In this document: positions 7,177 to 63,737 of the stretch, piece by piece
Layout of the letters: each line of letters begins with the position of its first letter
How positions within the stretch are numbered: position 1 is the stretch's first letter
The notes under the pieces: generated by a model
Databases searched by the model: none
What the model was told of the DNA's origin: nothing
The model's input: only the letters and a program-made list of their open reading frames with translations
Program-made: the position numbers and the translations under genes
NCBI GenBank assembly: GCA_963558435.1
Contig: CAUWGM010000010.1
Location: 1,432-65,431 of the forward strand
DNA length: 64,000 bases
Direction of reading: 5' to 3'
Source of the DNA: an uncultured Collinsella sp.
GTDB lineage: Bacteria > Actinomycetota > Coriobacteriia > Coriobacteriales > Coriobacteriaceae

Positions 7177-7229
7177 GCGGCGATTTTGAATAGGCGAAAT
7201 CGAGAGTTTGTCAATCCGAGGGGGCGTAT

Positions 7230-7760: not shown

Positions 7761-7785
7761 CCTCACACGATGAAAGAGAGTAAAA

Positions 7786-8712
7786 ATGCCAATCGGTATC
7801 AATGGAGAATCACTTTTCTGCGATTACTACTCGCAATGGATCAGCGTCTACAAAGAAGGGGCCATCCGAGAGGTCACCATGGGAAAGTACCGGCTCACAC
7901 AGTCTTGGCTCGCCAAGCTGATTCCAGACCTCAAGATAAAAGATCTCGACCGAACCTCGTACCAGCAGCTCATCAATGGTTACGCAGAGCATCACGAGCG
8001 CCAGACAACCATGGACTTCCACCATCAGCTTAAGGGGGCGATTCTTGACGCAGTTGACGAAGGACTCATCCCCCGCGACCCCACGCGCAAGGCCATCATC
8101 AAAGGGAAGCAGCCGCGTGCCAAAAAGATCAAGTATCTTAACCAGTTTGAGCTTCATGCCATGCTCGGAGACCTCGATTTATCAGGCGGGCCGAGCTGGG
8201 ATTGGCTCATTCTCATAGTCGCTAAAACGGGCCTGCGCTTCTCCGAAGCCCTTGGGCTTACTCCCGAAGACTTCGACTTCGCCCATCAAACGCTTTCGGT
8301 GAACAAAACCTGGGATTACAAGAACGGCGGCGGATTCATCCCAACGAAAAACGCCTCATCGGTCCGGAAGGTCCAACTCGACTGGCAACTCATCATGCAA
8401 CTTTCTGGGCTACTCAAAGACCTTCCGCCGACTGAGCCCATATTTGCGAAGGGAAAAGTCTACAACTCGACGGCTAACAGCATCTTGGCACGCCATTGTA
8501 AAAACGTTGGGGCACCCATCATATCTATCCACGGGCTGAGGCATACTCACGCGTCGCTTCTGCTGTTCGCTGGCGTCTCCATCGCCAGCGTATCTCGAAG
8601 ACTCGGACACGCGAGCATGACTACAACCCAAGAAACCTACTTGCATGTCATCCAAGAGCTCGAGAACAAGGATATTGACATCGTCATGAGGGCCCTTTCG
8701 ACTCTCATTTAA
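7786..8712 (+). CDS. Tyrosine site-specific recombinase (hsdS shufflon invertase candidate)
   Basis: 308 aa with TGLRFSEAL (Arg), HGLRHTHASLL (H-x-x-R) and TQETYLHV (Tyr). Embedded between inverted hsdS cassettes. Confidence 0.9.
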   Translation: MPIGINGESLFCDYYSQWISVYKEGAIREVTMGKYRLTQSWLAKLIPDLKIKDLDRTSYQQLINGYAEHHERQTTMDFHHQLKGAILDAVDEGLIPRDPTRKAIIKGKQPRAKKIKYLNQFELHAMLGDLDLSGGPSWDWLILIVAKTGLRFSEALGLTPEDFDFAHQTLSVNKTWDYKNGGGFIPTKNASSVRKVQLDWQLIMQLSGLLKDLPPTEPIFAKGKVYNSTANSILARHCKNVGAPIISIHGLRHTHASLLLFAGVSIASVSRRLGHASMTTTQETYLHVIQELENKDIDIVMRALSTLI

Positions 8713-9247
8713 CCTGTATCAGCAAATCGTGGCTCACGCTGATGAAGGGTGATGAGGGAATCGAGGTTCGCGAAGTAACGACCTATCTTGGCTGCTTCAC
8801 GGCTGCCAGGGACTGCTATAGCAAATGCTTTAACCTTATCGGCATTTAGATTTCGCTGCGTCCCTGTCGAAATATAAGGTTCCCATTCGAAGCTTGCGTC
8901 CGCTTTTTCGAGTCTCGTGAATACAAAGTCTCTAATGGCGACGTCTTCGAAAACCATGTTATAGAAAGCCTGGCTAGTGGCAGTATCTTGCCTGATAATG
9001 CCTACTTTTCCGACGCTCGCATACATCGCAAGGCTTACTGCGCCAGCTGGAACAATCCATGCCGCACTATTGCGCAAGCCTTCTTTGGTGAGCGTTTTGG
9101 CCGTATGTACAATATCCCTTCCCTCAATGTCGGCAATACTGAGAAAAGGTATTTCTCCCCCGTAGTAATTTGGGTTAGTTGCTGAGGGCGTTCCGCCTGA
9201 GCCGCCCAACTGGATAATTTCACCCAACTTACGCTGTTCCCAAGATG
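8709..9247 (-). CDS. hsdS' cassette B: single TRD, silent
   Basis: PSWEQRKLGEIIQLGGSGGTPSATNPNYYGGEIPFLSIADI...AAKIGRYFANLDSLITLHQRE. The track ORF's N-terminal 30 aa are antisense to cassette C and not credible. Confidence 0.7.
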
Positions 9248-9292
9248 GAGTCGTCCAATTTGGATAACCGCTTGGGAACAGCGTAAGTTGGG
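9223..9292. repeat. Head-to-head 22-bp perfect inverted repeat (9223-9244 / 9271-9292) at the WEQRK-coding ends of cassettes B and C
   Basis: CCCAACTTACGCTGTTCCCAAG and CTTGGGAACAGCGTAAGTTGGG separated by 26 bp. The same 22-mer recurs at 10959-10980 and 11574-11595 in the expressed hsdS. Confidence 0.85.
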
Positions 9293-10289
9293 GGAATTTG
9301 GTTCTGTTGCCATGTGCAAGCGCATATACAAAGAACAAACTTCGGAGCAGGGTGATGTTCCGTTCTTTAAGATCGGAACTTTTGGTGCGGATCCGGATGC
9401 CTTCATCTCTAATGAGCTGTTTGAAGACTTCAAGCGTACCTATCCGTATCCAACCCCGGGTACGTCATTGATATCGGCTGCAGGAAGTATCGGGCGGATT
9501 GTTGAATACCAAGGTGAAAAGGCATATTTTCAAGACTCAAACATTGTATGGCTCGAACATGATCATAGATTGAACGATGCATTTCTCAAGCCTTTATACT
9601 CGCAAATTGAATGGGGCTTAGAGGGAAGCACGATTAAGCGGCTTTACAACAAGGACTTACTGAGCGCAGAAGTCACTATCCCAGACGATAGAGAACAAAA
9701 AGTAATTGGCCAATTCTTTGCCAAACTCGATAACCTCATCACCCTTCATCAGCGTAAGTGCCAATGCCGTAGCTTGTGCGGTTATCTTTCTTGGGAACAG
9801 CGTAAGTTTGCTGATTTTGTCACCGCATCCGGAATCAGGAACTCGGAGAATCTCGAACTACCCAGTTATTCCGTGACCAACGATCGCGGCTTCGTCCCCC
9901 AGGATGAACAGTTCGAAAACGGCGGAACGATGCGCGAGGCCGATAAAACAAGCTATTGGATTGTTGAGCCGAGAAGCTTTGCCTACAACCCAGCCAGAAT
10001 CAACGTTGGTTCAATCGGCTATCAATCTACCAGCGGAAATGTAATTGTTAGCTCCCTCTACGAAGTCTTTCGGACTGACGAAACCTGCGACGATCGCTTT
10101 CTTTGGCATTGGTTTAAGACGCGGCTGTTTGCACAGCAAATCGAAATGTTGCAAGAAGGTGGTGTCAGGCTCTATTTCTTCTTCGATAAATTGTTGAAGA
10201 GCGTGATCAGCATGCCTTCGATAGATGAGCAGAGACTTATCGGCGAGCAATTCGACCGCCTCGACGACCTCATCACCCTTCATCAGTGA
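9270..10289 (+). CDS. hsdS' cassettes C+D: two TRDs in hsdS layout but with no in-frame start (stop at 9198-9200 upstream)
   Basis: WEQRKLGEFGSVAMCKRIYK...FFAKLDNLITLHQRK, linker, then SWEQRKFADF...DDLITLHQ*. TRD D is identical to cassette A. Confidence 0.7.
   Translation, partial: AWEQRKLGEFGSVAMCKRIYKEQTSEQGDVPFFKIGTFGADPDAFISNELFEDFKRTYPYPTPGTSLISAAGSIGRIVEYQGEKAYFQDSNIVWLEHDHRLNDAFLKPLYSQIEWGLEGSTIKRLYNKDLLSAEVTIPDDREQKVIGQFFAKLDNLITLHQRKCQCRSLCGYLSWEQRKFADFVTASGIRNSENLELPSYSVTNDRGFVPQDEQFENGGTMREADKTSYWIVEPRSFAYNPARINVGSIGYQSTSGNVIVSSLYEVFRTDETCDDRFLWHWFKTRLFAQQIEMLQEGGVRLYFFFDKLLKSVISMPSIDEQRLIGEQFDRLDDLITLHQ
9734..9758. repeat. 25-bp inverted repeat with 11081-11105 (central LITLHQRK region of the expressed hsdS)
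   Basis: CCTCATCACCCTTCATCAGCGTAAG versus CTTACGCTGATGAAGGGTGATGAGG. Confidence 0.8.
9789..10286. repeat. 498-bp direct repeat, copy 2 (TRD of cassette D)
   Basis: See 7254-7751. Confidence 0.85.
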
Positions 10290-10405
10290 TAGCGATAAGA
10301 AGGCAGAAGTGTCTTACAACTCGATCGCAAATTGAAAAAACCGCCGATTCGACTAATGCGAATTGGCGGTTTCGTGATCCCGGAGTGAAATCTGTGTTGA
10401 AAAAA

Positions 10406-11647
10406 CTAAACGAACATCTTATCCAAAAGCGATTTCTTCGTATTCTTCAGTAGATTCAGCTCACGCTGATGAAGGGTGATAAGGCTGTCGAGGCGGGCGA
10501 AGTATTGACCAATTTGCCTCTGCTCTACCGCAGACGGAACAGCAACGCTCAGCTCCATCACCTTGTTCTTGGATATGTTGAATCTAGAGATTCCCTGAGC
10601 CAGCAGGGTGAGATCGGAACGAATCGAACTTGACCTGAGCATGTAGGCTAGGTAATGCGGGTCAAACGTTGAATCTTGTCTGTATCCAAAACAGAAGCTG
10701 TTGAGGTAAACATCATCCTGGTCAGAGAGCCAAACGGAGGACATACCAACTTCATCCGGCGTTTCAGAAGACACAGTGAAGAACGCGTCACCGTACGCAA
10801 CTTTATTTTGGCTCGAATCTATTTCGACTGCCTCGAGCCGCTCTGTGTCCGTCAGGGGATTGTCAAAGACATTGGTATACGGAACGAACCTGGCGTTGCC
10901 ATGACCGAAATCCTCCTTGGTTTTACCGCTCAGACCACTATAGGTTGTCCCGCAGTTACCCAACTTACGCTGTTCCCAAGGGTCAGTAAAACCCTCGAAG
11001 CGGATTTCGGGCTCGGTCTCGCCGGGTTTCGGAAACATTTTGTCGAGCATCGATTTCTTCACCGTGCACAGCTTGTCGTACTTACGCTGATGAAGGGTGA
11101 TGAGGGAGTCGAGACCGAGAACGACCGTAGATATGCGCTTCTGCTCGCTTTCCGACGGGTAAGAGATCTCAACTTCGGCGATGTCGTTGCCATGGACGTG
11201 TACGACTGATTTTCCTTGTGCTCGCTTTGCTAAATCGTCATGAGCTTTGCTGTACGTTATAGAAAGCGCGGTGTAGTCTGGATCAAGCTTGCTTACTGGA
11301 GTGACGACGTTCAAATCGCTGCCAAAAATGATTCCTGACCTGCGCACGGATGACGCAACGGCAATATCTTCCGCCGTTTCCCCGGATGCGGGAACGATTA
11401 CTTCGTTACCCTTTGAAAGAAGTGAGCCCTCTTGCTCAACGGCAAAAGTGTCCACCTCCTCAATACGTGATTCATATTGGGTATACAGGCGTCCATACAA
11501 GATAAGTGGGGTGCCAACATCCATAATGTCGGCTTTGCTGTAGCCATGCCCCTTAGAAATAGTGCAGAGTTCCCCCAACTTACGCTGTTCCCAAGGGTCA
11601 GTAAAACCCTCGAAGCGGATTTCGGGCGCATTGGTCTTTTCCGCCAT
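10406..11647 (-). CDS. hsdS: Type I R-M specificity subunit, expressed copy with two TRDs
   Basis: MAEKTNAPEIRFEGFTDPWEQRKLGE...LDSLITLHQRK...PEIRFEGFTDPWEQRKLG...LDSLITLHQRE. The ATG at 11647 lies 1 nt after the hsdM stop. A 54-bp internal direct repeat occurs at 10959-11012 and 11574-11627. Confidence 0.9.
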   Translation of the reverse strand: MAEKTNAPEIRFEGFTDPWEQRKLGELCTISKGHGYSKADIMDVGTPLILYGRLYTQYESRIEEVDTFAVEQEGSLLSKGNEVIVPASGETAEDIAVASSVRRSGIIFGSDLNVVTPVSKLDPDYTALSITYSKAHDDLAKRAQGKSVVHVHGNDIAEVEISYPSESEQKRISTVVLGLDSLITLHQRKYDKLCTVKKSMLDKMFPKPGETEPEIRFEGFTDPWEQRKLGNCGTTYSGLSGKTKEDFGHGNARFVPYTNVFDNPLTDTERLEAVEIDSSQNKVAYGDAFFTVSSETPDEVGMSSVWLSDQDDVYLNSFCFGYRQDSTFDPHYLAYMLRSSSIRSDLTLLAQGISRFNISKNKVMELSVAVPSAVEQRQIGQYFARLDSLITLHQRELNLLKNTKKSLLDKMFV

Positions 11648-11648
11648 G

Positions 11649-14408
11649 CTATTCGCCCCCCAACAGTTTTCGCAGCTCAGCAATGCCCGCCATATCGTGC
11701 TCGTTGCCCGTGAGCTGGCCCAGCATCGCCGCCAACTCGTTTTCCGCCTCAGCGATCTGGTTGCATACGTCTGAATATGTTGTCGCGTACTTTGCGTTCA
11801 GTGCGACGACCTTTGCGATGAAATCGCTTACGACAGCATTGGGCAGCTCGAGCAAATCAGTTTGCAGCGGCTCAATCCACTTCGCAGCAAGCAATTCGTC
11901 GCACTGGGCGTCGGTCAGGCTCTCGACAACCTCCTTGGTCTTCTCCTCAAGGGCAAGCTTCGCTTCCTTACTCGCTTTCTTGAGCGACTTCTCCTCGTCG
12001 AGGAGCTCCTTCGCTTGCGCAAGGACGTATTCAAAGCTATCAGCAGGAAAGCCTACTGCCAGCTTTAACTTTCCTATATAGGATGCAACCTTTGCTTTGC
12101 CGTACGTTCCGTCTTTGTTTGACTCCATTTCCTGCCAGGAAACCTCAGAGTGTTTTTCAATGAAGCCTAGCTTTTCTTGTTTCTTCGCTTTTCGGTCAAG
12201 AAGCTTCAGATATTCTTCCAGGACACGAATCTCTGGAGAGGAGATATACTTCATTTCGCTGTTAAGATGGGCATTGATCTCTTTGAGGACGAATGCGTCA
12301 TTCGAGTCGTTAATCGCTGGAGAGTCGAGTTGCTCAACGTCCAGGGAATCGATCAATTCAGAACAAGACAAGGATATGGCGGACAGCCTCTCCTGCATCG
12401 AGTTTATTTTGGCAACATCGGCTGTGAGCATGTGGCTTTGTACTAGCTCGAACGGGAGTATATGACCAATCCAGCCGTCCTGAACTTCAGTTTCCTTTCC
12501 GTCTTTCTTTTTTATCACCATATTCGGATCGACTTTGCGTACGGCCTCGCTACCCTCGGTCTGGATAACCTCGAGGTCGCCGGAGATGCCCGTCCATGCA
12601 TCGTCGAGAGCCTGGTAGGCATTGTACCCGTCGACGAGCGCGACATCGGAGAGGGCGTCGCGGAGCAGCTCCGCGATATGGTCCTCCTCGGCCACGGCGT
12701 CGACTTGTAACGAGCCGTCTACCAGTCTTTTCCGCAGCTCTGCAGGCAAGTGCGACAGTATATCCCGATAGCCGCCCAGAAATGAAACGACGTCGGCGTT
12801 GGCCTTCACCGTTGCTGCCACGTCATCTGTCATGGAAGCAAGGCATGATCCGCTACCCTCACCGTACAGCTGGCCCTTCAGGCTCGGCCACACCCTCCAG
12901 TAGCGGTCGAGAGCGTCGACCTCGACCTTCGGCACGCCGCCGAACATGGTGGCGTACACGTCCCAGCTCTCAGCAGCTTCGGACGAATCAACATAACGCG
13001 GAATGTTGAGGTTGTAATCGTTGGCGCGAATCTCGTCGATGGTCACCAGACGGCTGAACTTGTCGACGGTTGCGTTCGTTGTCACGGCGTCGACGATACG
13101 CTTGATGTCGCTTGCACGCAGCTTGTTGTTCTTACCCTCTTTCACGAAGTGCTTGGAGGCGTCCACCACCAAAACGTCGCTCGTCTCGCGCTGCTTTCGC
13201 AGCACCATGACGATGGTGGGGATACCCGTGCCGAAGAAGATGTTGGCAGGAAGGCCGATGATGGCCTGGATGTGGCGGTTCTCCACCAAGTTTTTTCTGA
13301 TGGTGCCCTCTTCGCCGCCACGGAACAGCACGCCGTGCGGCAGGACGATGCACATGATGCCGTCGGGACGCAGGTGGTACAGATCGTGCAGCAAAAAGGC
13401 GTAGTCCGCCTTGGACTTGGGCGCCACGCCGAACTTGAAGCGCGGGTCGAGCTCTTTGTCTTCCGGATCCCAGTTCTGAGAATACGGCGGGTTCGACACC
13501 ACGGCATCGACGAATAGCGGGTCGTAGGTCTCGTCCTTGTTCTCCACCGTATCGAACCACGGCCAGTCGTCCTCGAGCGTGTCGCCGTTTCTGGCCACGA
13601 TGTTGTCGGGAAGGATGCCGCGCATCACCAGGTTCATGCGCGTGAGGTTGTAGGTGTTTTCCTTGAGCTCCTGAGCGTAGTACTTGATGGAGTCCGGGTC
13701 GCCGTTGCGGCGCGCCACCGCCTTGCCGATGTTGATGAGCAGCGATCCCGAGCCGCTCGTGGGGTCGTAGATGGTGATGTTTTCGCGTCCGGCCAGGTGC
13801 CACGAGACGATCTCGCTCATAAGCATGGACACCTCGTGCGGCGTGTAGAACTCGCCGGCCTTCTTGCCGGCGTTGGCGGCGAAGTTGCTGATGAGATACT
13901 CGTAGATGAAGCCGAGCACATCGTAGTCCTGGCGACCGTCCATCGGGATGTCCTTGATGAGGTAGATGAGGTCGCGAGCGGCCTTGGACTGGCTGCGCGC
14001 ATCGGTGCCCAACTTGGAGAGGCCAGTCTGCAGCGTATCGAAGATGCCGTCGAAGACGCGCTTGCGTGCAGGATCGATATTGCGGCTGAAGGCGGAAAGC
14101 GCGTCGCGAACGTTCGATATCTCGAAGTCGCCGCCCTTGGCGACCCAGGTGGAGAAGAGGTTCTCGTAGGCGATGAAGTAGCCGCACTCGCCCTTGACGA
14201 ACTCGACCGTCTCCTCGTCGTCTTCCACCAGGCTGGGCAGGTCCTCCTCGGCGAAGTCGCGCGCCTTCAGGCGGGCAACCTCGGTCTCGGACAGGAACTT
14301 GTAGAAAATAAATCCCAGAATGTAGTCCTTGTACTCGTTAGCCTCGATCTTGGATCGCATCTTGTTGGCGGACTCCCATATCTTGGAGGCCAGCTGCTGC
14401 TTGTTCAT
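11649..14408 (-). CDS. hsdM: Type I R-M N6-adenine methyltransferase subunit with a ~400-aa C-terminal extension
   Basis: HsdM_N-like start MNKQQLASKIWESANKMRSKIEANEYKDYILGFIFYKFLSE, SAM motif IYDPTSGSGSLL, catalytic VVSNPPYSQNW. At 919 aa it is much longer than the ~500-aa HsdM proteins I am familiar with. Confidence 0.9.
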   Translation of the reverse strand: MNKQQLASKIWESANKMRSKIEANEYKDYILGFIFYKFLSETEVARLKARDFAEEDLPSLVEDDEETVEFVKGECGYFIAYENLFSTWVAKGGDFEISNVRDALSAFSRNIDPARKRVFDGIFDTLQTGLSKLGTDARSQSKAARDLIYLIKDIPMDGRQDYDVLGFIYEYLISNFAANAGKKAGEFYTPHEVSMLMSEIVSWHLAGRENITIYDPTSGSGSLLINIGKAVARRNGDPDSIKYYAQELKENTYNLTRMNLVMRGILPDNIVARNGDTLEDDWPWFDTVENKDETYDPLFVDAVVSNPPYSQNWDPEDKELDPRFKFGVAPKSKADYAFLLHDLYHLRPDGIMCIVLPHGVLFRGGEEGTIRKNLVENRHIQAIIGLPANIFFGTGIPTIVMVLRKQRETSDVLVVDASKHFVKEGKNNKLRASDIKRIVDAVTTNATVDKFSRLVTIDEIRANDYNLNIPRYVDSSEAAESWDVYATMFGGVPKVEVDALDRYWRVWPSLKGQLYGEGSGSCLASMTDDVAATVKANADVVSFLGGYRDILSHLPAELRKRLVDGSLQVDAVAEEDHIAELLRDALSDVALVDGYNAYQALDDAWTGISGDLEVIQTEGSEAVRKVDPNMVIKKKDGKETEVQDGWIGHILPFELVQSHMLTADVAKINSMQERLSAISLSCSELIDSLDVEQLDSPAINDSNDAFVLKEINAHLNSEMKYISSPEIRVLEEYLKLLDRKAKKQEKLGFIEKHSEVSWQEMESNKDGTYGKAKVASYIGKLKLAVGFPADSFEYVLAQAKELLDEEKSLKKASKEAKLALEEKTKEVVESLTDAQCDELLAAKWIEPLQTDLLELPNAVVSDFIAKVVALNAKYATTYSDVCNQIAEAENELAAMLGQLTGNEHDMAGIAELRKLLGGE

Positions 14409-24260: not shown

Positions 24261-26258
24261 ATGGCAAAGAACACCGCAAATTATGGCAACGACAGCATCC
24301 GTCAGCTCAAGGACGAGGAGCGCGTACGCCTGCGCCCCGCCGTCATCTTCGGCTCGGACGGGCTCGACGGCTGCGCGCACGCCGCCTTCGAGATCCTGTC
24401 CAACGCCGTCGACGAGGCGCGCCAGGGCTACGGCAACCTGATCACCCTCACCGCCTTCCGCGACGGCTCCATCCAGGTCGAGGACAACGGCCGCGGCTGC
24501 CCGCTCGATTGGAACCCCTCCGAGAAGCGCTTCAACTGGGAACTCGTCTTCTGCGAGCTCTACGCCGGCGGCAAGTACAACAACAACGAGGGCGGCGACT
24601 ACGACTTCTCGCTCGGCACCAACGGCCTGGGCTCCTGCGCGACCCAGTACGCCTCCGAGTACATGGACGTCACGGTCTGGCGCGACGGCAACAAGTACTC
24701 CCTCCACTTCAAGAAGGGCAAGGTCGTGGGCGCCAAGAAGAAGGCGCTCGAGATCGAGCCCACCGACGAGGACCGCACCGGCACTACCATCAAGTGGCGC
24801 CCGGACCTGGAGGTCTTCACCTCGATCAGCATCCCCCACGAGTGGTACCGCGAGACCATGCGCCGCCAGGCCGTGGTCAACGCCAACGTGACCTTCCGCC
24901 TGCGCATCGAGGGCGACGACGGCGAGTTCGCCGAAGAGGACTTCTGCTATCCCAAGGGCATCGAGGACTACGTGCTCGAGAAGGTGGGCGCCGACTACCT
25001 GACCGAGCCCTTCTTCATCGAGGCGGAGCGCCGCGGCCGCGACCGCGAGGACCTGCCCGACTACAACGTCAAGATCACGGCCTGCCTGTGCTTCTCGCGC
25101 ACCTTCCAGATGCAGGAGTACTACCACAACTCCTCGTGGCTAGAGAACGGCGGCTCGCCCGAGAAGGCCGCCCGCAGCGCGCTGACCAGCGCAATCGACG
25201 CCTACATCAAGCAACAGGGCAAGTACAACAAAAACGAGAGCTGCATCAAGTGGCAGGACGTCCAGGACTGCCTGGTGCTGGTGACCAACTGCTTCTCCAC
25301 CCAGACGTCGTACGAGAACCAGACCAAGAAGGCCATCAACAACCGCTTCATCCAGCAGGCCATGACGGCGTTCTTCAAGGAGCGCCTGGCGACCTACCTG
25401 ATCGAGAACAAGGACGCCGCCAACAAGATCATGGAGCAGGTGCTCATCAACAAGCGCTCGCGCGAGAACGCCGAGAAAACCCGTCAGAGCATCAAGACCA
25501 ACCTGCAGCAGAAGACCGACATGGCCAACCGCGTGCAGAAGTTCATCGACTGCCGCTCCAAGGACAAGACCCGCCGCGAGGTCTACATCGTGGAGGGCGA
25601 CTCGGCGGCGGGTGCCATCCGCACCTCGCGCGACGCCGAGTTCCAGGGTGTGATGCCCGTCCGCGGCAAGATCCTCAACTGCCTGAAGGAGGATTACCCG
25701 CGCATCTTCAAGTCCGACGTCATCATGGACCTCATGCGCGTGCTGGGCTGCGGCGTGGAGATCAAGGATAAGCGCATCAAGAACCTGGGCGCCTTCGATC
25801 TTGATAACCTCAACTGGAGCAAGGTCATCATCTGTACGGACGCCGACGTGGATGGCTACCACATCCGCACGCTCATCCTGACGATGCTCTACCGCCTGGT
25901 GCCCACGCTCATCGACGAGGGCTACGTCTACATCGCGGAGTCGCCGCTGTACGAGATCAACTGCAAGGAGAAGACCTACTTCGCCTACACCGAGCTGGAG
26001 AAGAACGACATCCTAGCCGAGATCGGCGACCAGAAGTGCTCCATCAACCGCTCCAAGGGTCTTGGTGAGAACGACCCGGACATGATGTGGCTCACCACCA
26101 TGAACCCCGAGACGCGCCGCCTGATCAAGGTGGAGCCCGAGGACGTGGCCAAGATGGAATCCATGTTCAACCTGCTGCTGGGCAACGACGAGGCCGGCCG
26201 CAAGCGCCATATCGCCGAGCACGGCAAGGAGTACCTCGACCAGCTGGACCTGCAGTAA
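24261..26258 (+). CDS. parE: Type IIA topoisomerase subunit B (ParE/GyrB family)
   Basis: GHKL motif EILSNAVDE, GTNGLGSCA, TOPRIM YIVEGDSAAG and DADVDGYHI. The parE-versus-gyrB call rests only on length (665 aa) and partner architecture. Confidence 0.85.
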   Translation: MAKNTANYGNDSIRQLKDEERVRLRPAVIFGSDGLDGCAHAAFEILSNAVDEARQGYGNLITLTAFRDGSIQVEDNGRGCPLDWNPSEKRFNWELVFCELYAGGKYNNNEGGDYDFSLGTNGLGSCATQYASEYMDVTVWRDGNKYSLHFKKGKVVGAKKKALEIEPTDEDRTGTTIKWRPDLEVFTSISIPHEWYRETMRRQAVVNANVTFRLRIEGDDGEFAEEDFCYPKGIEDYVLEKVGADYLTEPFFIEAERRGRDREDLPDYNVKITACLCFSRTFQMQEYYHNSSWLENGGSPEKAARSALTSAIDAYIKQQGKYNKNESCIKWQDVQDCLVLVTNCFSTQTSYENQTKKAINNRFIQQAMTAFFKERLATYLIENKDAANKIMEQVLINKRSRENAEKTRQSIKTNLQQKTDMANRVQKFIDCRSKDKTRREVYIVEGDSAAGAIRTSRDAEFQGVMPVRGKILNCLKEDYPRIFKSDVIMDLMRVLGCGVEIKDKRIKNLGAFDLDNLNWSKVIICTDADVDGYHIRTLILTMLYRLVPTLIDEGYVYIAESPLYEINCKEKTYFAYTELEKNDILAEIGDQKCSINRSKGLGENDPDMMWLTTMNPETRRLIKVEPEDVAKMESMFNLLLGNDEAGRKRHIAEHGKEYLDQLDLQ

Positions 26259-29065: not shown

Positions 29066-29103
29066 AAAAGGAAAAATCCCCCGACCTTTCCGCAGGTCAG
29101 GGG
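29066..29103 (-). terminator. Intrinsic terminator; interpreted as the displaced ancestral guaA terminator
   Basis: On the minus strand, CCCCUGACC-loop-GGUCGGGGG followed by AUUUUUCCUUUU. It begins ~23 nt after the relic GAGTGGGAGTAG. Confidence 0.6.
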
Positions 29104-29125: not shown

Positions 29126-29136
29126 TACTCCCACTC
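29126..29136. repeat. att core, left copy (TACTCCCACTC)
   Basis: Identical 11-mer at 41099-41109, where it encodes the last guaA codons (..EWE) and part of the stop codon. Confidence 0.55.
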
Positions 29137-29378
29137 AGTAATCAAATCGTGCATATCCATGGTCTCTCGTCTACGTGGTGCACCGCCGTCTCCCCATTAA
29201 CCGGAATCAGCCGCATTTCACGTGCCCGAGTTGAACTCAAATTGAACTCAACTTCAGTTTATCGGTTTGCGGTTGCGTGTAATGCCCATAGCAATAAATG
29301 ACAGTACGACTCCGAGTTCTTTTCACTCCTTTATGCTTTTCATAACAGAAGTAAGCGACGGTGAGCGTGCAGTTTTCT

Positions 29379-29789
29379 CTAAACTGAGTAATCCCTTATT
29401 GCCTGAACCACACTGGAGGAGTTCCAGCCGACCATCACATCAGAGTTGTCTGCAACCTTTTTGGGAACCCTCTCCTGGCCCCAAGGCCGAACACCTATAA
29501 TCGGCTTACCCATCTCAATTGCTGTATCTATCTCGAAGTCAATCCATTGGCTGTAGTTAACATACATCCCCGCAAGAATAACGACACAGCTGCATTTAGC
29601 AATTTGTGTTGAAATCTTTGTCTTTAACTCCCTAACAGAATTTGCGTCGAGGGGATCGTAAAACGGAACAGAGTAGTCGCTCCAGTAAAAGTAGGACGCA
29701 TCATCCAGCCATTTCTTGACCGTCTCGTAAGGATCCGGGTATTTCCATGAATGACTAATAAACACGTGATAGGTTCTCAAACCAGCCAT
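29379..29789 (-). CDS. TIR-like domain protein (DUF1863/ThsB-like)
   Basis: YHVFISHSWKYPD...CVVILAGMYVNYSQWIDFEIDTAIEMGKPIIGV. This shows a TIR-like core with a candidate catalytic Glu in WIDFEID. Lies 16 nt downstream of the caspase gene. Confidence 0.7.
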   Translation of the reverse strand: MAGLRTYHVFISHSWKYPDPYETVKKWLDDASYFYWSDYSVPFYDPLDANSVRELKTKISTQIAKCSCVVILAGMYVNYSQWIDFEIDTAIEMGKPIIGVRPWGQERVPKKVADNSDVMVGWNSSSVVQAIRDYSV

Positions 29790-29805
29790 CGCAAACCCTT
29801 CCTAT

Positions 29806-30774
29806 TTAGATTTTCCCATCTTTCACCAGCCGCCAATATTGCTTGCCCATGGGTGTCAAATGACAACTCCCGGAATTCATGGCCGCATAATACATGTGCT
29901 CTTCTCCGGTGGGGACAACTAAGCCAATCCCTTCAAGCTTTTGAAGAACGGAGAAAGTTTCCGTATTCGGTTGCTTCGCATAGGGCTCAACAACCTCATG
30001 AGGGCACTCAGGCGTATTTGTAGGCTCAAACGATGGATCGAGTTGCACTTCAGAGCATTCCTCAGTAAACAGCTCCGCCAATCGCCGAATCGTCTTGATG
30101 TCTACTTGAGGAGTAACCTTCCGAATAGAGGTGAAATGGGACACGTTCGTCTTGAAAACAGGCCTTTGCTCCCAAGGGCCTAGAGCCTTGTCGATAAATG
30201 CGTAAATCCCACCAGCACTAATTGCTCCAGTGATATCGGCAGCACCCCCTTTGAGGGCTTCTACCAGCAGCGAGGTAAACACGCCGTGTCCATCGATTTC
30301 CATCGATGTCTCGAATTCGCGGCAGGCGGAAAGAATTGTAACTCCCTCGTTAATCACAGCAGTGTTCTGCCCGGAGGTATTGATGTTCCCCATCTGTCCC
30401 GAATAACAGCTATCGAGGATAATGATTCTCTCTCGGCATTTCGACTGATTGGCAATCGTGAGCACTTCGTCCAACGATACGCCCCAATCATTAGGAGAGT
30501 AATCGGGAGTAACCAAGTATCCACCGACGGAATCGATATACCCATGCCCAGAATAATAAAAGAGAGCCGCTTCGCAATCTCCGTCGAAGCACTTCTTGAT
30601 GTGCTCTCGAAGTTCCCCCTTGGTGGGCACGTCATCTTTCTTGAATACAGAGAAGTTTGGGTCTCCATTCTCGTTATTTGCAAGAAGGTCCTTTATCGCT
30701 TCTGAGTCATTGCGGCACCCCTGCAACGGGCAACCCGGGTAATTGTCAATCCCTACGACTAGAGCCTTTCTCAC
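29806..30774 (-). CDS. Caspase-like (peptidase C14) protein with a ~110-aa C-terminal domain
   Basis: GTG start after AAGGGGGA. ALVVGIDNY, His in FYYSGHGY, Cys in IILDSCYSG. The C-terminal domain is unassigned. Confidence 0.8.
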   Translation of the reverse strand: MRKALVVGIDNYPGCPLQGCRNDSEAIKDLLANNENGDPNFSVFKKDDVPTKGELREHIKKCFDGDCEAALFYYSGHGYIDSVGGYLVTPDYSPNDWGVSLDEVLTIANQSKCRERIIILDSCYSGQMGNINTSGQNTAVINEGVTILSACREFETSMEIDGHGVFTSLLVEALKGGAADITGAISAGGIYAFIDKALGPWEQRPVFKTNVSHFTSIRKVTPQVDIKTIRRLAELFTEECSEVQLDPSFEPTNTPECPHEVVEPYAKQPNTETFSVLQKLEGIGLVVPTGEEHMYYAAMNSGSCHLTPMGKQYWRLVKDGKI

Positions 30775-30836
30775 AAGTCCCCCTTAACATATTTGATGAC
30801 CGCGACATGTCCAGGAACGGCCAAAACACCATCGAA

Positions 30837-31265
30837 TTATCTTCCTTTATACCCGCGCTTCCAGTCGAGGTACTCCTCCTCGGAGATCTCCCCGGAGTCC
30901 CGCCTCGCGCGCATCGCGGCCCATGCCCTGACCGCCGCGTCGAGCTTCTGGGCGCCGGGCGCCGCGGGGTCCACGGCGACCCGAGCCCCGCCATCGTCGG
31001 CCTCGGGCCTCGCGCCGAATCCCTCCTCGAGCCGGAACAGGACCTCAATCGCGTCGCGCGCCGTCTCGACCCCGTAGTCGGCGAGCGCGGCGGGGGCGAC
31101 CCCGAGCGCCCTCGCGAGGGCCTCCAGGTGCTGCGGCCGGGGCGTCCTGAGCCCGAGCTCGTAGTTTCGCACGGCGGACTCGGTCACGCCCGCCATCTCG
31201 GCGAGCTCCCTCTGCAGGAGGCCGCGCCTCGTCCTGAGCTCGCGTATCCTGCTGCCGTCCGCCAT
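30837..31265 (-). CDS. XRE-family HTH regulator (element repressor-like)
   Basis: IRELRTRRGLLQRELAEMAGVTESAVRNYELG. Divergent from the xis/int genes. Confidence 0.8.
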   Translation of the reverse strand: MADGSRIRELRTRRGLLQRELAEMAGVTESAVRNYELGLRTPRPQHLEALARALGVAPAALADYGVETARDAIEVLFRLEEGFGARPEADDGGARVAVDPAAPGAQKLDAAVRAWAAMRARRDSGEISEEEYLDWKRGYKGR

Positions 31266-31419
31266 GTCTCCCCTGTCTCTCTCGTGTACGTGGTGTACCA
31301 GATTATCTCAGGATAACGCATCAGGATATGAAGGATTGTCATGTTGACCGTTCGATTTCGTGCTGCTAGTATCCGAACTGACAGCACGTTTTCGTGCTGT
31401 CGTAAGATTGGAGAGAGAG

Positions 31420-31623
31420 ATGGAGAGCAGAACCATCGGCGCGGACGAGGTCGCCGAGGCCCTCGGCATGTCGCGTGCCTACGCCTACAAGCTCATCCGC
31501 CGGCTCAACAAGGAGATGGAGGAGCGGGGGTGCATAACCGTGCCCGGGCGGGTCAGCCGCGCGTACTTCGAGAAGCGCCTGTTCGGGGGCGAGGGGGATT
31601 CCGATGTCGGTGACAAGGGATAG
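31420..31623 (+). CDS. Small HTH protein, excisionase-like
   Basis: MESRTIGADEVAEALGMSRAYAYKLIRRLNKEMEERGCITVPGRVSRAYFEKRLFG. RBS GGAGAGAGAG. Overlaps the int start. Confidence 0.6.
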   Translation: MESRTIGADEVAEALGMSRAYAYKLIRRLNKEMEERGCITVPGRVSRAYFEKRLFGGEGDSDVGDKG

Positions 31624-32677
31624 GCGGAACGGCACCTGGTACGTCCAGGCCTGGTACAAGACCTACGACGGCAAGCGAGCCCACAAGGTGAAGCGCGGCT
31701 TCAAGACCAAGCCCGAGGCGCTCGCGTGGGAGCGCGACTTCTACGCCGTGCAGGCGGGCGACATGGACATGAAGCTCGTCGACTTCCTCGAGCTCTACAA
31801 GAAGGACATGGGGCCGCGCCTGCGCCTGAGCACCTGGAAGACCAAGGAGTCCATCATTAGGAAGCGCATCCTCCCCTACCTGGGCGAGAAGCGCATGAAC
31901 CAGATCGCCCCGGTCGACGTCGTGAGGTGGCAGAACGAGCTGATGGCCCTCGAGAAGCCGAGCGGGGGCGGGTTCTCCGCGACCTACCTCAAGACCGTCA
32001 ACAACCAGCTCTGCGCGCTCTTCAACCACGCCGTGCGCTTCTACGGCCTCTCGTCGAACCCGTGCCGCAGGGCCGAGTCCATGGGCTCCAAGTCCGCCGG
32101 CGAGATGAGGTTCTGGACCAAGGACCAGTACCTCAGGTTCTCGGACGAGGTCATGGACAAGCCGCTCTCCTTCCACGCCTTCGAGACGCTCTACTGGTGC
32201 GGCGTGCGCGAGGGGGAGCTGCTCGCCCTGAAGCCGCGGAGGTTCGACTTCGAGCGGGGGACCCTCACCGTCGCGGAGTCCTACCAGCGCATCGACGGGC
32301 AGGACGTCCTCACCGACCCGAAGACCCCGAAGTCGAAGCGCGTCATCGCCATGCCGCGCTTCTACGCGGAGGAGATGGAGGCGTTCCTCTCCGCGCTCGA
32401 CCTCGACCCCGACGAACGGATCTTCCCCGTGACCAAGTACTTCCTCAGCCACGAGATGGCGCGCGGCAGCAAGGCGGCGGGCCTCGAGCCGATCCGCGTC
32501 CACGACCTCAGGCACAGCCACGTGTCGCTGCTCATCGACATGGGCTTCACCGCGCTCGCCATCGCGGACCGCATGGGCCACGAGGCGGCCGACATCACCT
32601 ACCGCTACGCCCACCTGTTCCCCAGCGTCCAGGCCGACATGGCCCGCGCCCTGGACGGGGCGAGAAGGGAGAACTGA
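31604..32677 (+). CDS. int: Tyrosine integrase (Tn916-Int-like)
   Basis: MSVTRDRRNGTWYVQAWYKTYDGKRAHKVKRGFKTKPEA..., GVREGELLAL, VHDLRHSHVSLL, YRYAHLF. Confidence 0.9.
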   Translation: MSVTRDRRNGTWYVQAWYKTYDGKRAHKVKRGFKTKPEALAWERDFYAVQAGDMDMKLVDFLELYKKDMGPRLRLSTWKTKESIIRKRILPYLGEKRMNQIAPVDVVRWQNELMALEKPSGGGFSATYLKTVNNQLCALFNHAVRFYGLSSNPCRRAESMGSKSAGEMRFWTKDQYLRFSDEVMDKPLSFHAFETLYWCGVREGELLALKPRRFDFERGTLTVAESYQRIDGQDVLTDPKTPKSKRVIAMPRFYAEEMEAFLSALDLDPDERIFPVTKYFLSHEMARGSKAAGLEPIRVHDLRHSHVSLLIDMGFTALAIADRMGHEAADITYRYAHLFPSVQADMARALDGARREN

Positions 32678-33276: not shown

Positions 33277-34422
33277 ATGGAAGATCCCGGCACCGCGACA
33301 ACAAAGGAACGGCCGCTCATCGACGCCGCCCAGCAGGTCCGCCACCTCAAGGACCGAGGGGTCCGCTTCGAGCTGACGGACGAGCGGGAGGCCGAGCGAT
33401 TCCTGCGGGAGAGCAACTTCTTCTTCAAGGTGAAGGCGTTCGCGAAGTGCTTCTCCCGCTACACCAACCCCGGCTCGGAGCGCTTCGGCTCCTACATCAA
33501 CCTCGACTTCGCCCACCTCGCCGAGCTCACGAGGCTCGACCACCACCTCCGCGAGACGGTCCTCTCCCTCACGCTCGACATCGAGCACTACATGAAGGTC
33601 GAGCTCAACAGGATGATCATGGACGCGGGAGACGACCCCTACGAGCTCATGGCGTCCTTCTTCGCATCCGAGTACGAAAGGAAGATAAAGGTACTCGAGA
33701 AGAGGGTCGACCTTTGCTCCATTCGGTCGAAGGCCCCGGTGGTCAGAAGCCTGTCCGGAGACCTGGCGGCATCGGACGCCAAATCCGTCATCTCCGCCCT
33801 CGCCTCCCTGCTGCACCTGGCATCGGACGCGCTCGGCGGGATAGACCCCGACCACACCGAGAGGAGCCTTGCCGGGCTGGGCGGGTCCTCCTACACCCGC
33901 GGGCTCGTCGAGAAGTACGGGGACCCCGAGCACATGGCGGTCTGGAGCTACCTCGAGCTCGCGTCCTTCGGGGGCGTCATCTCGCTCTACAAGTACTACG
34001 TCTTCGAGCGGCGAGCGATGAAGGATGAGGAGGCAGTAAAGGGCCTACTCTTCCCGACGAAGGCGCTGAGGAACGCCGCCGCCCACAACGGGAACATGCT
34101 CAGCACGCTCAGCTCGAAGCTGAGGAAGCCCGTCGGCTCCATCTCGAGGATGGCGGTCGAGGAGCTGGGAATCGACCGCGAGCTCGTGTCGCTCACCAAG
34201 AGGGCGCCCATCGTCCACGACTTCACCGCCCTCGCCCTCTGCTACATGCACCTGGTCAAGAGCGAGGACGCGAGAGGGGACGCCGCAGAGAGGCTCCAAG
34301 CCCTGCGCAGGCGATTCATGGCGCACAGGGGCTACTTCTCCAAGCAGGGCGAGCTAAAGAACGGCCTGGCAATGCTCAGCGAGGTCATGGACAGAGCGGC
34401 CGGCCGCCTCTCACGGCCATAG
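33277..34422 (+). CDS. Abi_2 (AbiD/AbiF-like) abortive-infection family protein
   Basis: IDAAQQVRHLKDRGVRFELTDEREAERFLRESNFFFKVKAF...LRNAAAHNG. This matches the pattern I associate with Abi-like proteins. Confidence 0.65.
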   Translation: MEDPGTATTKERPLIDAAQQVRHLKDRGVRFELTDEREAERFLRESNFFFKVKAFAKCFSRYTNPGSERFGSYINLDFAHLAELTRLDHHLRETVLSLTLDIEHYMKVELNRMIMDAGDDPYELMASFFASEYERKIKVLEKRVDLCSIRSKAPVVRSLSGDLAASDAKSVISALASLLHLASDALGGIDPDHTERSLAGLGGSSYTRGLVEKYGDPEHMAVWSYLELASFGGVISLYKYYVFERRAMKDEEAVKGLLFPTKALRNAAAHNGNMLSTLSSKLRKPVGSISRMAVEELGIDRELVSLTKRAPIVHDFTALALCYMHLVKSEDARGDAAERLQALRRRFMAHRGYFSKQGELKNGLAMLSEVMDRAAGRLSRP

Positions 34423-34530
34423 TCAACGCCATCGTCGCCTTTCGACTTCCTCCGGGGAGGGCTTGTTGACGTCTAAGTTCCGAATCAGGCAGAATAACGA
34501 CAGATGTAAAAACCCATCAAGGTTTTGTAA

Positions 34531-34566
34531 GAGCGGGGCCGCCTGGCGGAACCGCTCTAGTTTTTT
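34531..34566 (+). terminator. Intrinsic terminator after the Abi gene
   Basis: GAGCGG-GGCCGCCTGGCGGAA-CCGCTC followed by TAGTTTTTT. Confidence 0.6.
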
Positions 34567-35165
34567 AGGCCGACTCTTGAAAGCCCACTGGTGACTGCGA
34601 CCATCCGCTGAAATCCGTAATCCTCGCTCGGACAGAGCGGGTTCGAGTAAGTCCGAGTAGGTCCGAGCAGCCCAGCAGCAACCCTCCTGCCCACAGCATA
34701 AAATCCGCAGCTCAGGCGCATGACATGCCGTCACATGAAGCGGCTGGTTCGGGTAAGAGTAAGTCCGAGTGGTCAGAGTAGGGCCCGACTTCCCCCTCTC
34801 GGCCGGGCGCAGAGCCGATAAGGCGAACTCCAGAGACAACCCAATAACGACGAGCCGAGGCCGGCGGATGCCGGTTATTCCTCGTGCGCGCAGCCTGTCA
34901 CGGGCCCCGCTTTCCTCGCAAGGGCCGCGATGCTTTTCCGGCTTCTTTCGGGCTCGGCCGCCCCCGCTCAGAGCGGTGCCGGCGAAGCTCGCCCGAAACA
35001 ACCGGTCGGCGGCGCCTCCCTGCCGGAAAACCAGCGGCTCCGTCTTCGCTTCCCCACCCTTGCGGCGCGCGGGATCCCGCGCGCCCTCCGCTCCCGCTCC
35101 GGGCGGTCGGCAGCTAACGAGGCATAGCCGTTTGCGGAAGGAGCGTGAGGACGATGAGGGAGAGC

Positions 35166-35438
35166 CTAGAGGTCGGCCGTGTTCTCCACGAGGCCGAAGC
35201 GACCACCGAGCGTCACAAGCGCATCCCCGTCGAGGTACCGCAGGGGCCCGCCGGAGGGAACGCCCCTCGCCTCGTCCACGTCGGTGACCGAAGCGTTCCA
35301 GTCGCACACCGGGCAGTAGAACGCAATCTCCCCCGGGCGGCGGGAGTACCGGAACATGCGGAGGTCCCCGCCGCACGCAGGGCAGCGCCGGTAGGGACGG
35401 TCGCCGGGATGCTCCCTGAAATGCTCGAAGACGCCCAT
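35166..35438 (-). CDS. Zinc-ribbon protein (two CxxC pairs)
   Basis: MGVFEHFREHPGDRPYRRCPACGGDLRMFRYSRRPGEIAFYCPVCDW... RBS GGAAGGGGGA. The first 22 codons and the upstream region are duplicated at 40053-40119. Confidence 0.5.
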   Translation of the reverse strand: MGVFEHFREHPGDRPYRRCPACGGDLRMFRYSRRPGEIAFYCPVCDWNASVTDVDEARGVPSGGPLRYLDGDALVTLGGRFGLVENTADL

Positions 35439-35545
35439 CTCGTCCCCCTTCCGAGGCCGCCGCCAAACTCCTGTTCCCAGCATTCTACCCCGCCGAGGGG
35501 ACGCGCACCTTGACAGCAGCATACGACCGCAAAGGACATGCGCCC
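35372..35545. repeat. 174-bp inverted repeat, left arm (partner 39946-40119)
   Basis: By eye the reverse complement of 35372-35545 matches 39946-40119 throughout. The ORF-track translations of both arms are identical (MSFAVVCCCQGARPLGGVECWEQEFGGGLGRGTRWASSSISGSIPATVPTGAALRA). Confidence 0.85.
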
Positions 35546-36078
35546 GCGCAGTTCACTGCGGCGACGGCGACTGCAAGCCACATCGGGGTGCGGGCGTCGC
35601 CGCGGGCGCGCACGACGGTGCCGGCGGCGGAGAGCAGGAAGGCGCCGGGCAGCCCCGCCGCCCAGACCCGCGTGTACGCCGCGGCGTCCGCGAGCGCGTC
35701 TGCCGGGACGCCGAGCGCGCCGTAGAGCGAGCCGGCGAGGAGCGCGCAGGGCAGCGCGACGGCGGCCGAGAGCACGAGCGCAGCAAGGAGCGCCGCCCCC
35801 TCCGCGCGGGAGGCGCCGTCCCTCTCGCCCGCCCCGAGGCGGCGCGAGACGAGCACCGTGGCGCCCACGGAAAGGCCGAGCGAGAGCGAGTCGGCCACGA
35901 AGCCGACCATCGTGGCGTGGGCGAGGGCGGCGAGCCCCCGCTCCCCGACGAACGCCCCCACGACGAGCATGTCCACGACCTGGTCGGCGGACTGCAGGAG
36001 GTTGGCGCCGAGCGCCGGCAGCGCGAAGCACGCGAGGTTCGCGGCCGGGCGGCCGCGGAGGAAGTCTATTTCCCTCAT
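35485..36078 (-). pseudogene. MATE-family efflux transporter, N-terminal ~180 aa only, truncated at the repeat boundary (35545)
   Basis: MREIDFLRGRPAANLACFALPALGANLLQSADQVVDMLVVGAFVGERGLAALA... is MATE-like. Homology ends where the 174-bp repeat begins. Confidence 0.6.
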
Positions 36079-36484
36079 TGGTTGTTCCTTTGCACGATCG
36101 AGACGAAAAGGGCCGCGGCAGCGAAGCCGTGGCCCCGGGGCTCGAACCGTGCGCGCACGAACGCATCGGCCAGCGGAGACTGGTCGTCAGCGTGCGCAGG
36201 TTGTACCGTCAGCTCCTCGCGACTTCCTGCCTAACATCACGGGGAGCGGCTCCAATCTGGAACTCGCCGATCTCTAGGTACAAAGAACACCTTTCCAACT
36301 GTAGTAGGGAATAGAGGCATTCTACCGTCATGCCCTGCTGAAGACAACGCGCGTCGGCGGGGCATGACGCAGCGAAACGCAGTCGCGCGCATGGCATTCA
36401 GGCGCATGACGGCCCCAAATGAAAGAGGTCTGGCCTCCGTCCATGCAGCAAAATGAAACGGCCGAATCATGCGAAGGAGCGAGC

Positions 36485-36910
36485 ATGAGTATTCCAACTC
36501 GCCAGGCACTCCCGCCCGAAAACTACCTAATCCTTCTTGGTGCGTCCCTCTGCGTCTTCAGCTCTAACAACGCCTTCGTCATCGAGAACATCCTCAGAAT
36601 AGACAGGTCGAACCTGGCCTGGCACGACCTCATCGACCTCGAGTCCGGTCAGCTAAAGCCCCATGTCGCTCGCACCATCACGAAGAAGTCTGGCGACAGC
36701 TCCATTGCGAGCCTCTTCAACGAGATCGTCTCCATGCGAAACCGCATCATCCACAGTCTCCAGATAACCGCAGAGGATGGCACGCAGGTGCTTGCCACCA
36801 AGGTCAAAAAGACACACGAGCAGTTCCGCATCACAGAGGATTACCTCGTATCATTCCTCAAGCAGAATGAAGAGCTTAGCGACTTGCTGCACGAGTACAG
36901 GGGATACTAA
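36485..36910 (+). CDS. HEPN-like (Rx4H) protein
   Basis: Met at 36485 after GAAGGAG. ...SSIASLFNEIVSMRNRIIHSLQ contains R-N-R-I-I-H. AT-richer than its surroundings. Confidence 0.5.
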   Translation: MSIPTRQALPPENYLILLGASLCVFSSNNAFVIENILRIDRSNLAWHDLIDLESGQLKPHVARTITKKSGDSSIASLFNEIVSMRNRIIHSLQITAEDGTQVLATKVKKTHEQFRITEDYLVSFLKQNEELSDLLHEYRGY

Positions 36911-36986
36911 CCCCCCGCGTCTCAAGTGTGTCCCGCCCGGATAACCCCCGCGGAGCGTTTGTTTTGACAATTTGTCAAGCCAGCAC

Positions 36987-37082
36987 TTAGCCCACCTCCC
37001 TCCGGCCTACGTTGCCCGCCGCCATGCAGCACGCGCAGGCGATGAGCGCGGCCGCGAACAAGAGGGCCCCGTGACGGTCCAT
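36987..37082 (-). CDS. 31-aa hydrophobic Cys-rich peptide
   Basis: Below the track's length cutoff. MDRHGALLFAAALIACACCMAAGNVGRREVG. Paralogous to the tail of ORF 39696..39953. Confidence 0.35.
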   Translation of the reverse strand: MDRHGALLFAAALIACACCMAAGNVGRREVG

Positions 37083-51675: not shown

Positions 51676-51870
51676 TTCTTCAGAGTGCGAAAACCACACC
51701 GCATACTCCATGCTTCATGGAGACAGTCTGAAATTTTACCCGTATCTGAACAAGCCGCCAGTCGAATGTCCTGGGTTTGTAATCACACTGTTAGACAATA
51801 GTTAGCATTAGCAGAAATTGAGGTTGCAAGCGCATGACATCATCCCCTCAACCGAGTGAAGGGAGCAGGT

Positions 51871-53202: not shown

Positions 53203-53228
53203 AGAAAACGACGCTTCGAGCGATCAGC

Positions 53229-59246: not shown

Positions 59247-63737
<4,491 letters not shown>

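Follow-up and report, generated by a model that had tools for sequence, protein, structure and literature searches.

What kind of system is encoded by two short, adjoining genes at the tip of a mobile element in a gut actinobacterium? The genes lie on contig CAUWGM010000010.1 of an uncultured Collinsella sp., within a stretch of 64,000 nucleotides that was analysed at its full length and is referred to here as the window, and they code for a protease resembling caspases and for a TIR protein. A preliminary description of this DNA had taken the pair for an immune system in which TIR signalling drives a protease effector, had mentioned a Thoeris variant of this kind, and had ranked the pair as the strongest candidate for a new system in the window. 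The analysis reported here indicates that the pair is, in all probability, a type IV Thoeris system, in which a TIR protein signalling through N7-cADPR would switch on the caspase-like protease and bring about abortive infection. The proposed immune function is supported by full-length homology to the type IV pair of E. coli 328, by conserved gene pairing and by the catalytic residues, and the same full-length homology identifies the variant mentioned there as the correct family.

According to the list of open reading frames (ORFs) of the window, the minus strand carries two intact ORFs with 16 nt between them. The features read earlier from the DNA were all reproduced: a 322-aa caspase-like ORF with the His and Cys contexts FYYSGHGY (His77) and IILDSCYSG (Cys123), its GTG start, the 16-nt gap, and a 136-aa TIR protein with the motifs HVFISHSW and WIDFEIDTA, the latter containing Glu86. 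The GTG is located three bases 3' of AAGGGGGA (AAGGGGGA-CTT-GTG). Pfam assigns the first protein to Peptidase_C14 (PF00656, E 3e-18) and the second to ThsB_TIR (PF08937, E 5.6e-18), and PADLOC returns "caspase" (E 6.8e-18) and ThsB (E 5.5e-15), respectively. The Peptidase_C14 and ThsB_TIR assignments are far beyond chance. In the caspase-like protein, the Peptidase_C14 domain occupies residues ~1-200 and is followed by a conserved C-terminal domain (~200-322), the presumed sensor of the signal. The spacer between the genes contains a GGAAGGG ribosome-binding site and suggests that the caspase and TIR genes probably form one transcription unit; the terminator scan gave no convincing terminator between them.

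A two-gene operon of a TIR and a caspase was described and named type IV Thoeris by Rousset et al. (bioRxiv 10.1101/2024.10.24.620036; cited as Science 387:510 (2025) in a later paper, 10.64898/2025.12.03.692087). In that study, the operons of E. coli 328 and Pseudomonas sp. 1-7 protect E. coli against T6, and the exchanges E79Q in the Pseudomonas TIR (PsTIR) and C129A in the Pseudomonas caspase (PsCaspase) each do away with defence. On infection, a new molecule, N7-cADPR, appears in cells that express the TIR; it was purified from cells expressing the E. coli TIR (EcTIR); N7-cADPR activates the caspase-like protein, and many proteins are then cleaved after arginine. The product of EcTIR also activates the distant Pseudomonas caspase. 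Detection of the system in genomes relied on a caspase profile together with PF13676 or PF08937, with no more than one gene between the two.

The EcTIR and PsTIR sequences used for comparison are translations of the cloned DNA as given in Table S2 of Rousset et al. The E. coli caspase (EcCaspase) is represented by the protein of E. coli strain 165, in which the TIR DNA agrees at 100% with the gene cloned from E. coli 328. Matches to the EcTIR DNA at 99% identity or more were obtained in 14 complete E. coli genomes, with 100% in the five listed; in strain 165, the EcTIR gene is followed by that of a 321-aa "caspase family protein" (WP_000709408.1), and both are found inside a prophage. The window TIR aligns with EcTIR over the full length (46% identity, E 6e-42), and its identity to PsTIR, within the common alignment, is 21%. 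The window caspase aligns with WP_000709408.1 from residues 1-322 to residues 1-321 (41% identity, E 3e-82), which includes the C-terminal domain. The detection rule of Rousset et al. fits the locus, where the PF08937 and PF00656 matches lie on the same strand, 16 nt apart, and the further features of the type are present as well, namely TIR homology, full-length caspase homology, Glu86 of the TIR, and Cys123 and His77 of the protease. Thus, every feature of membership in type IV Thoeris that can be tested on sequence is found in this pair, and no sequence evidence contradicts the assignment. Two of the loci surveyed below belong to genomes that Table S1 gives as type IV carriers (L033, Anaerobium acetethylicum GluBS11; L038, Parcubacteria GW2011_GWE2_39_37). 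Judged by its sequence, the pair is a plain member of a system whose type, signal (N7-cADPR) and effector logic are published, and for which PMC13069673 names a DefenseFinder profile, Thoeris_IV__ThsA_Casp4; its ranking as a candidate for a new system therefore falls.

The likeness to the two validated operons extends to the short ThsB-type TIR, the ~320-aa protein combining caspase and C-terminal domains, the arrangement as a two-gene operon, the retention of the catalytic Glu, His and Cys, and the location on a mobile element among other defence genes. The differences are threefold. In the window the caspase gene precedes the TIR gene, whereas the TIR gene comes first in both validated operons; the host is a high-GC (guanine plus cytosine) gut actinobacterium-like organism, with a cassette apparently derived from Clostridia/Lachnospiraceae; and the pair resides on an element integrated at guaA rather than in a prophage. 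These differences in gene order, host phylum and carrier element stay inside the variation already visible in the family.

A scan of 1.84 billion representative proteins with the caspase-like protein yielded 459 clusters (50% identity) at E<=1e-30, nearly all of them ~320 aa long and aligned end to end, which indicates that the protease domain is joined to the C-terminal ~120 residues in a single conserved architecture. When 46 diverse homologs are aligned, His77, Cys123, Asp121 and Asp23 are invariant, and the C-terminal positions Q203, R204, P205, F236, E250, Y295, A297, A298, T307 and G310 vary hardly or not at all. The C-terminal motifs QRPxFK, LDPSFE, EHMYxAA and CxLTxxG are kept in the homolog alignment and in the alignment with the E. 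coli caspase. On the TIR side, Glu86 is one of only two invariant positions among 39 caspase-linked TIRs (alignment including EcTIR and PsTIR), and it shares an alignment column with E79 of PsTIR. The profile of the caspase-linked TIRs matches the solved TIR/ThsB structures 8fz9, 8wcf and 9uv0.

An AlphaFold2 model of the caspase-like protein built on the 46-homolog alignment has a mean pLDDT of 95.4 and a pTM of 0.89. Compared by Foldseek with the Protein Data Bank (PDB), the model finds the MALT1 paracaspase as the best match (E 3.5e-13), together with caspases 9, 11, 3 and 7, CED-3 and metacaspases. The C14 fold that had been proposed from the His77 and Cys123 contexts is thereby confirmed. 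MALT1 and the metacaspases are the closest solved folds and have the His-Cys dyad in common with the window protein; they differ in that the identity is just 15-18%, and in being eukaryotic proteins that have no such C-terminal domain and are regulated otherwise. A sequence search of the PDB with the caspase-like protein gave marginal matches to metacaspase-9 only (E 0.4) and no type IV caspase structure. The motif Asp121-x-Cys123 and Asp23 presumably fit an acidic S1 pocket for Arg/Lys of the kind present in MALT1 and metacaspases, which would suit P1-arginine specificity.

The course of events may be pictured by homology as follows. A phage cue would activate the TIR protein, whose Glu86-dependent chemistry on NAD+ would produce the cyclic nucleotide N7-cADPR, as EcTIR does. 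N7-cADPR would bind the caspase-like protein, probably at the conserved C-terminal domain, and the His77/Cys123 protease so turned on would degrade many cellular proteins after arginine. The infected cell would then arrest or die before the release of phage progeny, i.e. by abortive infection. We infer a signal shared across the family, because the window TIR belongs to the subfamily of EcTIR, the source of the identified N7-cADPR, and because the EcTIR product activates the Pseudomonas caspase.

It is conceivable that the same architecture serves another chemistry, so that the pair is a functional variant with a TIR signal other than N7-cADPR or a protease of narrower substrate range. The proteins are just 41-46% identical to the validated ones, caspases of the family are paired with at least two very different TIR subfamilies, as the unequal distances of the window TIR from EcTIR and PsTIR illustrate, and TIR products are known to vary among the Thoeris types. 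We nevertheless regard such a variant as improbable, given that N7-cADPR was purified from a member of the window TIR's own subfamily and acts on a caspase as distant as that of Pseudomonas, that the C-terminal domain is conserved along its whole length, and that Asp121-x-Cys123 and Asp23 are invariant.

Other types of Thoeris and other defence systems with caspases were considered as well. The neighbours of the pair comprise the gene of a helix-turn-helix (HTH) protein, an integrase, a NikA-like gene, AbiD, TetR/ABC genes and genes of unknown type. The proteins of the island and its flanks include no SIR2, SLOG, Macro, CD-NTase, cas, gasdermin, STAND or EACC1 partner, in line with the earlier claim that a ThsA effector with SIR2, Macro or SLOG is absent, and this rules out the other Thoeris types and the remaining defence systems linked to caspases. 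In particular, type I/II Thoeris was rejected because no ThsA with SIR2-SLOG or Macro is near the TIR gene. Thoeris types with SIR2, SLOG or Macro effectors also use a ThsB-family TIR as sensor and synthase and cause abortive infection through an NAD-derived second messenger; their signal is 3'cADPR or His-ADPR, in contrast to N7-cADPR and a protease effector in the homologous type IV system. A caspase effector of CBASS or of type III CRISPR was rejected as well, as neither an adjacent CD-NTase nor cas genes with SAVED-CHAT occur among the same proteins. The EACC1-associated caspase (NCBIfam NF047832) was discarded on the grounds of a score of 92 bits against a cut-off of 140, a match confined to the protease domain, and no EACC1 partner. 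The SAVED-CHAT/PCaspase proteases of type III CRISPR, the proteases that activate gasdermins, and the CBASS- or Avs-linked and EACC1-associated caspases have the C14 fold in common with the window protease. The window protease is expected to differ from other bacterial caspase-like immune proteases in being activated by a TIR product and not by an upstream protease. PCaspase has been proposed to be promiscuous and arginine-specific (10.1101/2024.10.24.620036).

The association of the two genes was examined in a neighbourhood survey of 82 loci, of which 80 were drawn from many phyla at one genome per species and two came from metagenome contigs, with an alignment of 12 sequences as the query of the locus search. 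In 76 of the 82 loci, a TIR-family ORF shares the strand of the caspase homolog at a distance of no more than 100 nt; 44 loci have it only upstream, 20 only downstream and 12 on both sides. Three of the six loci counted without a paired TIR are not real absences: in one (L008) the contig ends directly after the caspase gene, in another (L047) the caspase gene is frameshifted and the TIR gene still follows directly 3', and in the A. acetethylicum locus the TIR genes are one gene off. The pairing of TIR and caspase genes is conserved across phyla, and the objection that homologs of the two might not be co-localised in other genomes clearly fails.

The closest relatives of the window pair are proteins of 72-77% identity that belong to Lachnospiraceae and other Clostridia. 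In a metagenome collection, 46 indexed blocks contain the identical caspase protein, and the six metagenome contigs that were examined among these all show the same island context. Members of the caspase family were also found on 50 plasmid records at a coverage of at least 80%, and on two records of a phage collection. The closest homolog pair of the Firmicutes type (77% identity) is located on metagenome contig ERZ15609940 NODE_7 (locus L001, 163-7406), directly 3' of hsdR-hsdM-hsdS and on the same strand. There, the start of the caspase gene overlaps the stop of hsdS, so that a type IV Thoeris pair is fused into a type I restriction-modification (R-M) operon.

In the window, the pair is carried by a repeat-bounded island of ~12 kb inserted at guaA (Table 1). 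From left to right, the island consists of TIR, caspase, XRE HTH gene, a divergent small ORF, a tyrosine integrase, a NikA-like gene, AbiD/Abi_2 and further ORFs up to guaA. The stop codon of the TIR gene is 243 nt from the left att repeat, in agreement with the earlier placement of the pair at the extreme left end of the island. The 11-bp repeat was not listed by the general direct-repeat scan and emerged from a targeted comparison of 11-mers between the island ends, for which we estimate a chance expectation of ~0.15 in the space searched. The repeat is called att because one copy falls on the guaA stop codon, and the other falls on the exact end of the similarity to Enorma massiliensis described below and beside a terminator-like hairpin. 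Scans of the window for tRNA genes and Rfam families were empty; thus the island has no association with a tRNA gene, and the pair is not accompanied by any known RNA element. Between AbiD and guaA are several ORFs that have no Pfam match, those at 34423-35466 (-), 35538-36314 (+) and 36419-36910 (+) among them, and the gene of an ABC-transporter ATPase. In the region 34423-37000, metagenome copies of the island show a MatE fragment, TetR and ABC genes, the MatE-fragment and TetR-type genes having been called on the matching metagenome contig L084. AbiD shares the guaA island with the pair, which brings the defence genes of the element to at least two. The defence context of the family further includes the homologs placed after a type I R-M operon and in an E. 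coli prophage.

The position of the pair at the very end of an integrative element, beside the element's regulator, would also suit an addiction or stabilisation module that acts like a toxin-antitoxin system and kills the cells that lose the element, and the E. coli 328 operon was slightly toxic on induction (10.1101/2024.10.24.620036). This is extremely unlikely in view of the many unrelated contexts in which homologs occur (3' of a type I R-M operon, in the lysis region of a prophage, on plasmids and on chromosomes of many phyla), of the two homologous operons shown to be phage defences that need both active sites (10.1101/2024.10.24.620036), and of the finding that nothing at this locus is antitoxin-like.

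The composition of the pair sets it apart from its surroundings. The GC content of the TIR and caspase genes is 45.5% and 49.4%, compared with 62% in parE/parC, 73% in the HTH gene, 66% in the integrase gene and 61% in the window, and the spot values given previously, 41.7% for 29521-29580 and 70.0% for 24301-24360, were reproduced exactly. The description of the pair as AT-rich island cargo is correct for the cassette of ~1.7 kb (48% GC) and incorrect for the island as a whole, the rest of which has 66% GC. Taken with the Lachnospiraceae/Clostridia relatives, this difference suggests that the pair is a secondary acquisition by the island.

A second copy of the cassette is found in Enorma massiliensis phI (the L047 locus, NZ_HE978575.1, 2527-5650). 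It shares only window positions 29126-30970 (~1.85 kb) at 97.5% identity, i.e. the caspase and TIR genes together with the 3' end of the HTH gene. The similarity ends exactly at the att repeat on one side, and inside the HTH gene beside an IS3-family element on the other. The E. massiliensis caspase gene is frameshifted by an additional G in a G-run (G5 to G6), which reflects either real decay or a homopolymer sequencing error. The caspase genes of the window and of E. massiliensis differ by 17 synonymous and 5 non-synonymous changes; the resulting pN/pS of 0.087 points to purifying selection.

These observations bear on a further possibility, that the pair is decaying or silent cargo from a low-GC Firmicute, unexpressed or non-functional in a high-GC host. 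A cassette so much poorer in GC than the rest of its island, promoter evidence at chance level, and a copy in E. massiliensis with a frameshifted caspase gene next to an HTH gene cut by an IS3-family element would all agree with it. It is made very unlikely by the two intact ORFs with all catalytic residues present, by good ribosome-binding sites 5' of both genes, by the low pN/pS and the occurrence of the identical protein in the 46 metagenome blocks, and by the location of the frameshift in a G-run, where it may be a sequencing error.

The HTH gene shares the strand of the pair, upstream of which it is located, and is divergent from the small ORF and integrase. Its product is probably the repressor of the island, and we regard it as context and not as a core component of the pair. 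The HTH gene stands next to the pair in all six metagenome contigs mentioned above and is absent beside the homolog fused to hsdS (L001). The PADLOC match to a capH-like profile spans profile positions 6-85 of 103. The HTH gene was nevertheless rejected as a CapH-type regulator, since no CapP-like protease turned up among the neighbours, its GC content of 73% is island-like, and no HTH gene is directly upstream in L001. The sole promoter-like match in the 62-nt gap before the caspase gene, TGGACA-16-TATGTT from 30813 to 30786, is at chance level (2 found, 1.8 expected) and is a candidate only. Its position suggests that the pair may be expressed from its own promoter or, as the HTH gene is 62 nt upstream, by read-through from that gene, with which it may be co-transcribed. 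The hairpin outside the left repeat, 275 nt downstream of the TIR gene, is by its position probably the original terminator of guaA and could end the transcript of the pair, which would then finish at the former guaA terminator.

On the basis of gene position, one may go further and suppose that the clade with the caspase gene first and EcTIR-like TIRs (gut Firmicutes and Coriobacteriia) differs functionally, e.g. in phage trigger or signal, and that the pair is read through from the repressor gene so that defence becomes part of the maintenance programme of the element, like rexAB with lambda cI. We consider this combined proposal unlikely.

Several points set limits to the assignment to type IV Thoeris. 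The gene order is reversed relative to the two validated operons, though both orders occur in the family. The identity to the validated proteins is 41-46%, so that we infer the identity of the signal from sequence, and the ligand-binding role of the C-terminal domain is itself proposed as a hypothesis only in the source paper (10.1101/2024.10.24.620036). Neither biochemical work nor a phage assay was found in the literature for this pair or for another member from Gram-positive bacteria or actinobacteria. Expression in this host could suffer from the low GC content of the cassette, 48% compared with 61% for the genome, and the copy in E. massiliensis has the 1-nt frameshift. With these points counted, the reading of the pair as type IV Thoeris still appears highly probable to us.

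The coordinates of the pair, of the island and of a type I R-M locus elsewhere in the window are collected in Table 1.

Table 1. Positions of the gene pair, its signals, the guaA island and the type I restriction-modification locus, numbered from the first letter of the window
Feature	Position	Strand	Basis or remark
ThsB-type TIR, 136 aa; presumed phage sensor and signal synthase	29379-29789	-	ORF, Pfam, PADLOC, homology
Spacer from caspase stop codon to TIR start codon, 16 nt, with GGAAGGG ribosome-binding site	29790-29805	-	Read from sequence
Caspase-like protease, ThsE-type presumed effector, 322 aa	29806-30774	-	ORF, Pfam, homology, AF2 model
Gap between HTH and caspase genes, 62 nt, with AAGGGGGA ribosome-binding site and weak sigma-70-like match	30775-30836	-	Sequence, promoter scan
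XRE/Cro-C1-type HTH protein, 142 aa, GC 73%	30837-31265	-	Pfam HTH_3 E 6.4e-16; PADLOC capH-like E 1.7e-13
Small ORF overlapping integrase start	31360-31623	+	Context only
Tyrosine integrase	31604-32677	+	Pfam Phage_integrase, Phage_int_SAM_3, Arm-DNA-bind_4
AbiD/Abi_2 abortive-infection gene	33277-34422	+	Pfam 1.7e-13, PADLOC AbiD 6.6e-16
guaA	41098-42846	-	Insertion target of the island
GC-rich hairpin and T-run outside left repeat, 10-bp stem, 7 GC pairs, ATTTTTCCTT tail	29078-29103	-	Terminator scan
att core, left copy of 11-bp direct repeat TACTCCCACTC; left boundary of island	29126-29136	.	Targeted 11-mer comparison of island ends
att core, right copy of 11-bp repeat TACTCCCACTC, over last three guaA codons (EWE) and part of stop codon	41099-41109	.	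Targeted 11-mer comparison of island ends
hsdR	3976-7176	+	
Four hsdS genes/fragments	7230-8033, 8709-9338, 9288-10289, 10406-11683	both	
Tyrosine recombinase among hsdS genes	7786-8712		
hsdM	11649-14408	-	

Some features outside the island may be mentioned. The type I R-M locus at 3976-14408 resembles a phase-variable hsdS shufflon, and its GC content falls to 48-52% at 7-11 kb. An rpoC-like ORF of 1496 aa (59247-63737, -) has an RNA_pol_A_CTD-like Pfam match at residues 1341-1391 (E 1.7e-8), a sign that the beta-prime subunit has an unusual C-terminal extension. At 51856-52845 (+), an AbiEi-like match was obtained that is weak (E 1.4e-4) and does not reach the Pfam cut-off; the two large ORFs that follow, of 1054 aa and 679 aa at 53506-58768 (+), have no Pfam match, with a dip in GC content to 54% at 52-53 kb. 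The region 51856-58768 may be another foreign or defence-like segment.

The pair has little value as a discovery, as standard tools should detect it through the Thoeris_IV profile of DefenseFinder. It is modestly useful in illustrating the spread of such cassettes: a 1.7-kb Clostridia-like cassette of 48% GC is seated at the tip of a guaA-targeting element in a gut bacterium of 61% GC, and the same cassette end is also found in Enorma massiliensis. As a variant that is widely sampled in the gut, the pair would be a reasonable representative of type IV Thoeris from Gram-positive bacteria or anaerobes for biochemical study.

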